A stretch of DNA of 64,000 nucleotides from Octopus vulgaris. Taxonomy: Eukaryota. The notes below the pieces were generated by a model that saw nothing but the letters and a program-made list of their open reading frames with translations, had not been told where the DNA came from and did not search any database. The position numbers were made by a program, and so were the translations under genes. Location of the stretch: NCBI GenBank assembly GCA_951406725.2, contig OX597824.1, positions 5,456,001 to 5,520,000 on the forward strand, in the 5' to 3' direction. Shown here piece after piece: positions 3,231 to 62,221 of this stretch. Within the stretch, counting starts at the first letter, position 1. Every line of letters starts with the position of its first letter.

Positions 3231-3391
3231 CGCAGGAGTTGCTGTGTGGTAAGTAGCTTGCTAACCAACCACATGGTTCCGGGTTCAGTCCCACTGCGTG
3301 GCACCTTGGGCAAGTGCCTTCTACTATAGCCCCGGGCCGACCAATGCCTTGTGAGTGGATTTGGTAGACGGAAACTGAAAGAAGCCTGTCG

Positions 3392-3475
<84 letters not shown>

Positions 3476-3522
3476 TGTGTCTGTGTTTGTCCCCCTAGCA
3501 TTGCTTGACAACCGATGCTGGT
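3229..3522 (+). mobile_element. SINE family A, 3' truncated
   Basis: Near-identical inverted partner of 2362-2774. Confidence 0.9.
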
Positions 3523-5472: not shown

Positions 5473-5671
5473 GTAATAATGCTGTATTAAATATGGCTGC
5501 AATAACTTAACTGTTATTTACATGCAGGCTAACACTGAGTTGTTTAGTGTATAAATAATTCTATTCTCCTACACCAAGAAGCATGCAATTTGGCCATTCA
5601 CTTAGTTGATCTTACTAACGTTACTTTCCGCAAAGACATTGAATTACTCGAGAATTGAAATAATATAACAA

Positions 5672-5991
5672 TTGCAGCGTGGAAGGTGTTTATAAGCCAT
5701 TTAAGAAACACACAAAAACCGTTAGATTCACCTCAACATTTAAATTAAATTTGTCAAAAACCGTTAGATTCACTTCAACATTTAAATTTAATTCGTCAAA
5801 ATATTTTCGTCGCTTTGAGGCCGCGACTTCTTCACTGACAAAGTTGTGATGCAGCACAGAGTTTCGTCAGTGAACAGGTCGCGGACTCAAAGTGACGAAA
5901 ATATTTTGACGAATTAAATTTAAATGTTGAAGTGAATTTAACGGTTATTGTGTGTTTCTTAAATGGCTTATAAACACCTTCCACGCTGCAA
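5672..5991. repeat. Long inverted repeat element (hammerhead motif in both arms)
   Basis: Arms 5672-5842 and about 5862-5991; left arm has an extra 42-bp tandem duplication. Confidence 0.9.
5863..5913 (+). ncRNA. Hammerhead-fold motif with G3:C8 variant core
   Basis: UUCGUCA-GUGAACA-G-GUCGC-loop-GUGAC-GAA-AAUAUU-U-UGACGAA: 7-bp stem I, 5-bp stem II, palindromic stem III; inverted copy on minus strand 5792-5842. Confidence 0.7.
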
Positions 5992-7477
5992 CCGTTTTCG
6001 TTCCAGCACACGATCTCACATCAAGTCACTCGCTATGCAAGTACATCTCTGAAATAAAATATTATTTCCTATACATTTCAGGGATTGTTGCACCACGTAT
6101 TTGCCAATATGATTAGAATCATAATAACAGCTTCTAATTTATGCATGAGGTCAGCAAAATTAGTGGAAGGCATCAGTCGATAACACCCCTAGTACTTGAC
6201 CGTTACTATATTTTATTACAAACCGAAGGATGAAACCTGAAAGGGATTTCGGTGGGATTTTGCCCACAGAATGTAATGTGCCCGAACAAAGACCGCAATG
6301 GACTCCTACTGATGCAGAATGTGTTTCGCCAGTTCGCCGCCTTGTAAGTATTTATCATTAAAATCTACGACGAATCATAAAATAATACGATGTAATAACG
6401 TTTTACTATTTCGGGCTGAGTCTATCTTTTATCTGTTAGTCTCAGTATGAAAATCCCTGTATCATTGACACCATATTGTTTATTGCTTGTGTATTTGTAC
6501 TGCTCTCAAAGATATACCTTCTATGTGGTGAGCCAACTTGTTAGAAATAACAGCAGAATCTTATATAAATCACAACCTACTATTATTTTTATTAAAGTCA
6601 TATTACAAACCGTGTCCACAGTTACATACGAAGGGGGATTGCTTTTCAGGTCTATTCACTTGACAAACCTTCATGCAGTTTTCCTTCTACCAAATTTCAT
6701 TAACAAGCTAAGGTCCTATACAAAATGACACTAATTCAATACGCTCTGAGATTGAAACCGAGATCACGTAGTTACAAAGCGAACTTCTTAACCATTCGAC
6801 CATACTGTAACTGCACATTAAATATGTGTGTGTGTGAGTAAAAATATCGTATTTAAAGTGTGGAGATTAATGACAGCATCTCACAGTGTTGAATTAGACC
6901 GAGATGAAATTCTTTAATCCATAATTTCCATACAAAATCAAAATAGCGCCATTGTACCAATACGGGAAATCAATACTTTACTTCTTAAAGAATTACAAAG
7001 AATTATATTCTAAACATATACATCGCAAAATATAAGACAAAGAGAATAGAAAAGCGTGATGGTGAAGGTTTCTCTAAAGATCCACTGCCTTGTAATTTCG
7101 GTTTTGCTCTATATTTGTATACAACAATTTCTTCCTTCTTATGGCAACTTTTAGGTTTATCTATTATTGCCTGGAATATCAAAGACACACAAGAAATTTA
7201 TTCAAATATAAAAATTTCAGCTACGGTAAGCATTATCCTGTTTTAATATATTGCCCCCATTAATGTTGTTATATATAAGTAATTATACGAAATGAAGATG
7301 TTATTGCTTACCCTGCGGATATTTACAATTAATAAAAGTATATAAAGCCGAACATTTATAATCCCCAAAAGATAATAAAATAACAATACCAAATGAACAT
7401 ATATAATTATTTTCCTAATAAATATCATGTTTCTGTATTTGCAATACAAATTAAACATCTAATTTTAGTAGCAATAA

Positions 7478-7858: not shown

Positions 7859-8068
7859 TCTTTTACTTGTTTCAGTCATTTGACTGCGGCCATGCAGGAG
7901 CACCGCCTTTAGTCGAGCAAATCGACCCCCAGGACTTATTCTTTGTAAGCCCAGTACCTATTCTATCGGTCTTTTTTGCCGAACCGCTAAGTGACGGGGA
8001 CGTAAACACACCAGCATCGGTTGTCAAGCAATGCTAGGGGGACAAACACAGACACACAAACACACACA

Positions 8069-8124
<56 letters not shown>

Positions 8125-8286
8125 TACGACGGGCTTCTTTCCGTTTCCGTCTACCAAATCCAGTCACAAGGCATTGGTCGGCCCGGGGCTATAGCAGAAG
8201 ACACTTGCCCAAGATGCCACGTAGTGGGACTGAACCCGGAACCATGTGGTTGGTTAGCAAGCTACTTACCACACAGCCACTCCTGC
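7859..8286 (-). mobile_element. SINE family A
   Basis: Full-length homology to 2362-2774. Confidence 0.9.
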
Positions 8287-62175: not shown

Positions 62176-62221
62176 GACACCTGATGAAGGCTGGTGGGTA
62201 TATCAGCCGAAACGTTGCGTT
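62176..62221 (+). ncRNA. Minimal type I hammerhead ribozyme
   Basis: GACAC-CUGAUGA-A-GGCUG-loop-CAGCC-GAAAC-GUU-GCGUU; palindromic stem III of the minimal Penelope-type; one mismatch in stem I. Confidence 0.8.

Follow-up and report, generated by a model that had tools for sequence, protein, structure and literature searches.

The DNA analyzed here, referred to as the window, is a 64,000-nucleotide stretch of the Octopus vulgaris genome (contig OX597824.1 of assembly GCA_951406725.2, forward-strand positions 5,456,001 to 5,520,000). At positions 5667 to 6049 it carries two head-to-head copies of a terminal repeat (pLTR) that belongs to an endonuclease-bearing Penelope-like element (PLE), and each copy contains a hammerhead motif. 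That C3 and G8 pair in the core of the active hammerhead is known from the crystal structure and from engineered swaps. In the direct copy, this pair is flipped to G3:C8; in the inverted copy, it is broken. The parts of the two motifs are as follows.

5863..5869, plus strand: hammerhead stem I, 5' strand, TTCGTCA; predicted pair probabilities of 0.66-0.94 in a 130-nt context
5870..5876, plus strand: core G3-U4-G5-A6-A7-C8-A9 (G3 at 5870, C8 at 5875, A9 at 5876), with G3:C8 in place of C3:G8
5877, plus strand: unpaired extra nucleotide between A9 and G10.1, G here and H in the published PLE consensus
5878..5896, plus strand: stem II of 5 bp (GTCGC 5878-5882 with GTGAC 5892-5896, one pair being G-U) and a 9-nt loop II
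5897..5906, plus strand: G12-A13-A14 (5897-5899), palindromic stem III AAUAUU (5900-5905, A15.1 to U16.1), and U17 (5906); predicted cut between 5906 and 5907
5907..5913, plus strand: hammerhead stem I, 3' strand, TGACGAA; 7 Watson-Crick pairs
5792..5842, minus strand: second hammerhead copy, GUGAAGA, with a broken 3-8 pair (G3 at 5835, G8 at 5830) and A at the 9/10 insertion

The original prediction, made from the letters of the window, had described a GUGAACA core, a 7-bp stem I, a 5-bp stem II, GAAA, and an AAUAUU palindrome, all of which are read at 5863-5913. Its register placed the stems and the core correctly and overlooked the unpaired G at 5877. The inverted copy, which it gave as GUGAAGA with a G3/G8 mismatch, reads so on the minus strand. 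Stems I and II of the direct motif enclose the core in the order of the minimal type I layout, and the conserved U4 G5 A6, A9, G12 A13 A14, A15.1-U16.1, and H17 are all present. The literal consensus letters C3 and G8 are absent, with Watson-Crick complementarity between the two positions retained, and the position between A9 and G10.1 is occupied, though by G rather than by an unpaired H.

A hammerhead descriptor matched the window at exactly two places, 5863-5913 and 5792-5842. No equally strong match was obtained in any of 40 block-wise dinucleotide shuffles of the window, and a loose form of the descriptor (stem I of ≥5, stem II of ≥4, and a Watson-Crick 3-8 pair) gave a mean of 0.025 matches per shuffle. 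The folding energy of the motif was modest (z of -1.87, with 10/200 shuffles equally good), and stems I and II had high predicted pairing probability in the leader context. In line with the expectation that standard searches would miss the motif, the Rfam hammerhead families at gathering thresholds gave 0 matches in the window. Elsewhere in the window, at 62181-62220 on the plus strand, a different repeat family contributes a canonical CUGAUGA-A ... GAAACGUU motif; the stem II of this motif was clear and its stem I weak, and it failed the hammerhead descriptor.

The 3-8 pair across the repeat families

The window copy belongs to family A, defined by a 9-nt loop II; family B is a younger sister with an 8-nt loop. 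Patterns that left positions 3 and 8 free and were exact elsewhere, so that the counts are lower bounds, found 3,705 matches to family A in the genome and 0 with the reversed pattern. Departures from G3:C8 consisted of G8 in 162 copies, A or U at position 8 in 113, and a base other than G at position 3 in 127, leaving about 3,300 copies with the flipped pair. In family B (about 2,240 copies), other bases were found at position 8 in 58 and at position 3 in 25. When copies were picked by a downstream anchor and hence blind to the core (96 position-ordered copies; 98 of 100 listed places taken), G3:C8 was present in 46 of the 51 readable cores. Whether G3:C8 is fixed had been proposed as a check on the family consensus, and the answer is positive: with about 90% of family A, 2,159 copies in family B, and the older families likewise, G3:C8 is the fixed state of the family and no private mutation. 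Stem III was AAUAUU in 155/164 family A copies and 42/42 family B copies, and G at the 9/10 insertion was found in 160/164 and 42/42 copies, respectively, and in 46/49 copies of a third lineage, C, described below.

The G3:G8 state of the inverted arm is a minority, about 4% of family A. These 162 copies include a cluster on one contig (C16) with different flanks, and some lie beside open reading frame (ORF) fragments. The change of C8 to G was far commoner than the mirror change of G3 to C, both in family A (162 versus at least 15, the latter among 100 listed of 127) and in family B (30 versus 3, hand counts). The change is found on numerous subfamily backgrounds, frequently with one of two paired arms affected, and is concentrated on contigs C16 and C29; the excess may stem from a reverse transcriptase (RT) error hotspot, from local source copies, or from errors in assembly. 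The possibility that G3:G8 copies represent an old intermediate subfamily of family A was rejected, as they lacked common diagnostic sites. It was also countered by their divergence, which was no greater than that of other copies (0.051 versus 0.049-0.081), and by a C8 partner in 7 of 10 inverted pairs holding a G8 copy.

Several further observations concern the same positions. The frequent sequence TCAATGAGTAGGTC, which suggested A3:U8, had neither stem II nor GAAA in 6/6 loci and is another repeat rather than a hammerhead. A metagenome scan for the motif returned 26 loci, none of which had the stems in register on inspection, and these were taken as chance matches. The GTGAACAGG core appeared in each of four sequencing runs (X1, X10, X15, and X17), which carry four different organism labels, and no alternative letter was listed above 3% at position 3 or 8. 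At one locus (L170:9035-9275), run X10 showed 13 A-to-G sites, compared with 3 in X15 and X17, which are large runs, and T-to-C was not in excess; the sites included two stem positions and no listed core position. This pattern looks like adenosine-to-inosine editing of the sense strand, and that X10 is RNA is a guess.

In the older, decayed families (D), the usual core is GUGACCA, loops span 6-8 nt, and the palindrome has 4 nt; since patterns fixing core letters retrieved most of the D copies, this core conservation in part reflects the search. When D was searched for without reference to the core, 62 matches were obtained, of which 30 loci were inspected; in the 11 cores readable by eye, G3 was present in 10 and C8 in 8, with C3 in none. 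Between D and A/B, the commonest N7 changed from C to A, loop II varied in length from 6 to 9 nt, and stem III passed from AAUU (the commonest in D, 22/51) to AAUAUU by a two-base insertion, being palindromic in both. The sixth pair of stem I was most often G-C in D (11/51) and U-A in A (143/164). G12, A13, A14, U16.1, and a non-G at position 17 persisted from D to B. Judged from these comparisons, the changes fall where a hammerhead tolerates them, namely at N7, loop II, the stem III palindrome, and a distal stem I pair. Pairs were counted with an anchored script, since cross-family MAFFT alignment misplaced stem III.

Lineage C of the same genome is canonical, with C3:G8 and the same stem II and G insertion as the G3:C8 families; ORF pieces were found in 3 of 30 of its loci, 42-57% identical to L170. 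With a 7-nt loop II and positions 3, 7, and 8 free, a hand tally of 100 listed of 133 matches gave G3:C8 in 43, C3:G8 in 33, U3:G8 in 12, A3:C8 in 4, C3:C8 in 2, C3:U8 in 2, and A3:G8, U3:A8, U3:C8, and G3:A8 in one each, with G3:G8 in none of those listed. Lineage C (L193-L219 and L313-L324) showed a mismatch or bulge at the base of stem I in its 6-nt-loop family, and some of its stem III sequences (AGAGCU and AGGACU, for example) depend on non-standard pairs alone. A tree of 57 copies built from downstream, non-core sequence set the 20 C copies, without exception, apart on one side (95/95), with A+B (99/98) nested among D; the tree is unrooted, and its bootstrap was not fully settled. G3:C8 is the derived state, and one origin suffices, because C3:G8 is the PLE hammerhead consensus across animals (PMC4209133).

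The host element

The features of the pLTR pair in the window are listed below.

5848..6049, plus strand: direct pLTR copy of family A, with the common 5' end GATGCAGCAC, the hammerhead, the ORF start, and the tail; its ends are common to genome copies
5963..6049, plus strand: opening codons of the PLE ORF, with ATG at 5963, including the optional tail (about 5992-6049); the ORF is cut off here
5667..5846, minus strand: inverted, untailed pLTR copy, head to head with the direct copy and containing a 42-bp internal duplication

The repeat is ∼150 or 205 bp long, with two alternative 3' ends, and often occurs as head-to-head pairs in which one arm has the longer end. Longer copies are preceded upstream by ∼1 kb of microsatellite-rich sequence and then an ORF of RT, linker, and GIY-YIG endonuclease. 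The stretch corresponding to 5963..6049 opens the RT-endonuclease ORF in L334, L335, and L336, and in the full-length copies L335 and L336 the direct pLTR sequence is continuous with the ORF. The search query for the ORF start included 53 nt of an inverted piece, and only the 5 other matches to the true ORF start were used. Because the repeat continues into the ORF start in these loci, it is the pLTR of a PLE, of which the window motif is one copy, and the tail is the start of the PLE ORF. No PLE ORF match was found in the window, which carries the pLTR pair only.

L170 holds an open frame of 1025 residues, the initial few dozen of which derive from an inverted piece. It contains the motifs DKSG, DVVSLYP, GGAIG, and RYVDD along with a C-terminal GIY-YIG domain with CCHH (Pfam PF01541, E value of 1.8e-5). 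Its linker, CQSNCAVC (CX3CxxC), has the CX2-5CxxC form of the Neptune or Nematis clade, and the closest database relative of the protein is an RT-domain protein named for Octopus vulgaris (61%). The element thus has the hallmarks of an endonuclease-bearing PLE: a single ORF with PLE-type RT and GIY-YIG, a pLTR, an optional tail, partial tandems, and inverted 5' copies. G3:C8 motifs are present in each of the 14 young loci (L170-L183). The ∼30 listed PLE endonuclease copies in the genome gave identical scores, with open frames of up to 1025 residues, and because of this the G3:C8 lineage is read from its sequences as young and probably recently active. The duplication in the inverted arm is in tandem (window 5713-5801) and likely reflects an RT jump. 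Inverted copies of a common repeat resembling short interspersed elements, 95% identical, lie on both sides of the locus at 3232-3476 and 8042-8286.

About 55-60 nt separate the motif from the ORF start codon downstream of it, and the hammerhead is therefore in the non-coding leader. This bears on the idea that the core letters are set by protein coding, or that the motif is a chance look-alike. An ORF does overlap the motif in some PLEs (PMC11167929), but here it begins downstream, and the loop II of families A and B differs by one base, so that no reading frame survives across them. Chance is opposed by the empty shuffles and reversed-pattern controls, and we consider either form of this explanation highly implausible.

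Copy ends and the case for self-cleavage

The 5' ends of the 96 position-ordered copies were compared with the predicted cut. None lay within 1 nt of it, 3 began at +2 to +4, and 76 ran through. Because there are no 5' ends at the cut site and 76/96 copies span it, the RNA that was copied was uncut. A canonical PLE motif, that of Anolis, shows the same lack of cut-site ends (PMC11167929), and by this analogy the absence of such ends would not separate active from inactive motifs.

The 5' ends instead gathered at AGATGCAGC, 20-25 nt upstream of G3, in 29/96 copies (57 5'-truncated copies plus window position 5848 being considered). Of the 29 copies ending in AG, 17 carried a preceding extra G (p of about 1e-6 against 18% G). 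From these ends we infer that transcription starts about 23 nt before G3, the extra G being untemplated and of the kind expected from a copied cap. In full copies, branch-point-like and acceptor-like sequence was seen upstream of the common 5' end, which looks like an intron acceptor; the capped start is preferred because the 5'-truncated copies share no upstream exon and 17/29 carry the extra G.

The same ends speak to a further possibility, that G3 was selected at the DNA level, where it makes an initiator-like TCAGT in the pLTR promoter, and that C8 followed as ribozyme rescue. TCAGT is an initiator sequence. The core reads TCAGT in the G3 families and TCACT in the canonical lineage, and PLE promoters are located in the pLTR (PMC6765202). 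The clustered ends, however, lie upstream of G3 and not at TCAGT, and the distance from cluster to core varies between families. This proposal speaks to why the swap arose and does not conflict with activity; we regard it as improbable.

We favor, as the reading that probably holds, that the G3:C8 motif is a ribozyme in the PLE leader that cleaves itself slowly, aided by dimer formation or by protein. Two motifs would pair via the stem III palindrome into a double hammerhead, in which the flipped G3-C8 Watson-Crick pair would position the 2'-OH of nucleotide 8 as general acid. A cut after UUU would then separate the units of tandem read-through RNA or take off the capped leader. Insertion would use uncut RNA, and short pLTR-only copies such as that in the window would stem from reverse transcription of uncut RNA that began within the tail.

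The swap likely occurred once, from C3:G8. Single-mutant steps could have been sheltered if cleavage is not needed for every insertion. In a double hammerhead, positions 3 and 8 would be on the same strand, which cuts its partner, so that a mismatched copy could still be processed by an intact one. The passage from C3:G8 to G3:C8 would thus have been eased, because a mixed dimer would let a dead core be cut by its partner. The larger proposal, held tentatively and with less confidence than activity itself, is that this is the first natural active G3:C8 hammerhead, kept through PLE families and reached via mixed dimers across a near-lethal valley of two transversions.

A number of points weigh against activity. 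UUU is a weak cleavage triplet, and dimer folds of the window copy gave -25.2 kcal/mol for the double hammerhead versus -30.5 for the best dimer, the former being not clearly better than two monomers (2 × -12.3). Copy 5' ends fail to mark the cut site. The 162 G3:G8 copies of family A, predicted to be dead, have spread. The swap counts as a single evolutionary event regardless of the number of copies that inherited it, and core conservation in D is in part a product of the search. The swap rescues activity only in part (PMC8495972, PMC11167929), and in a viroid hammerhead, a G inserted at 9/10 does strong harm (PMC3705267). U17 does occur in natural PLE motifs (supplement of PMC4209133).

These points raise the leading alternative, that the motif descends from a hammerhead and no longer cuts. 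The retained fold would then serve the PLE RNA leader in binding or folding, whether to engage the RT protein or to control translation, and the G3:C8 pair would persist for structure or as a frozen accident. The lack of copies ending at the cut site, the transposition of G3:G8 copies, and the stacked handicaps of G insertion, UUU, and swap all fit such a descendant, as does the finding that Anolis PLE hammerhead mutants insert normally in vitro (PMC11167929). Against it, both changes between lineages hit the same core pair and restore pairing, and G12, A13, A14, U16.1, and non-G17 persist from D to B while the free N7 changes. The dimer palindrome is retained despite its change in length, and a binding element has no obvious need for a pair formed only in the active fold. 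A non-cutting descendant is rather unlikely in our judgment, and slow, assisted self-cleavage remains the preferred reading.

Known hammerheads and significance

The closest described motifs are the minimal type I hammerheads of PLE pLTRs (PMC4209133, Cervera & De la Peña 2014), with the consensus CUGANGAH. The octopus motif shares with them the type I layout, the location in the pLTR, the palindromic stem III, the nucleotide between 9 and 10.1, and G10.1-C11.1, as well as thousands of solo copies, close inverted pairs, and U17, which is present in their table. It differs in the core (GUGANCA, not CUGANGA) and in the insertion (G here, H there). The sole core covariation in the accessible text of that paper is U3-A8. 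Natural U3-A8 hammerheads are reported in PMC3088659 (Perreault 2011) and in the S. mansoni Cercyon family, with about 1,300 matches (PMC4209133). Like G3-C8, U3-A8 is a double change that retains the 3-8 pair. U3-A8, however, requires two transitions, with passage possible through a U-G wobble, whereas G3-C8 requires two transversions, the direct route leading through a G-G or C-C mismatch, and shifts the purine to the other side of the pair.

As an engineered variant, C3G/G8C has been tested in the S. mansoni hammerhead and in the hammerhead of Anolis Poseidon (PAc) (PMC11167929, PMC8495972), and G3-C8 also appears in PMC3884650. G8C costs 10^5-fold, of which C3G restores only part (PMC8495972). 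In the Anolis PLE hammerhead, single mutants are dead and the C3G/G8C double mutant is partly active; uncut RNA is the main template, cleavage needs PLE protein, and mutants without activity remain able to insert in vitro (PMC11167929). The octopus element resembles PAc in the flip of the same pair and in copies arising by internal RT initiation with an optional tail, but here the flip is the fixed natural state and not a laboratory mutant, and the ORF lies downstream of the motif. With the endonuclease-bearing PLEs Neptune and Nematis (PMC8557442, Craig 2021) it shares the RT, the linker (CX2-5CxxC there), and GIY-YIG with CCHH, together with inverted 5'-truncated copies, tails, and insertion next to (TA)n; its tail is longer (about 57 nt versus 30-40), and the likeness is one of linker and domains rather than of placement in an RT tree.

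The accessible parts of PMC1636495 and PMC11014351 hold nothing on the 3-8 pair, and no natural G3:C8 hammerhead was found in the accessible literature, most subscription papers lying outside this coverage, so that priority is not certain. The G3:C8 motif is real, fixed, and derived and apparently undescribed in nature. A flipped pair fixed in a young retroelement of several thousand copies, beside a canonical sister, provides phylogenetic support for the 3-8 pair and indirect evidence that PLE hammerheads, whose role is not settled, are under selection for the active fold. The families offer a natural series for testing that role, with C3:G8, G3:C8, and G3:G8 cores and both AAUU and AAUAUU dimer palindromes. 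They also expose a blind spot, in that >5,000 motifs in this one genome are missed by Rfam and CUGANGA descriptors. If the reading is true, a whole class of swapped-core ribozymes would have been missed by such descriptors, possibly including PLE clades described as being without hammerheads.
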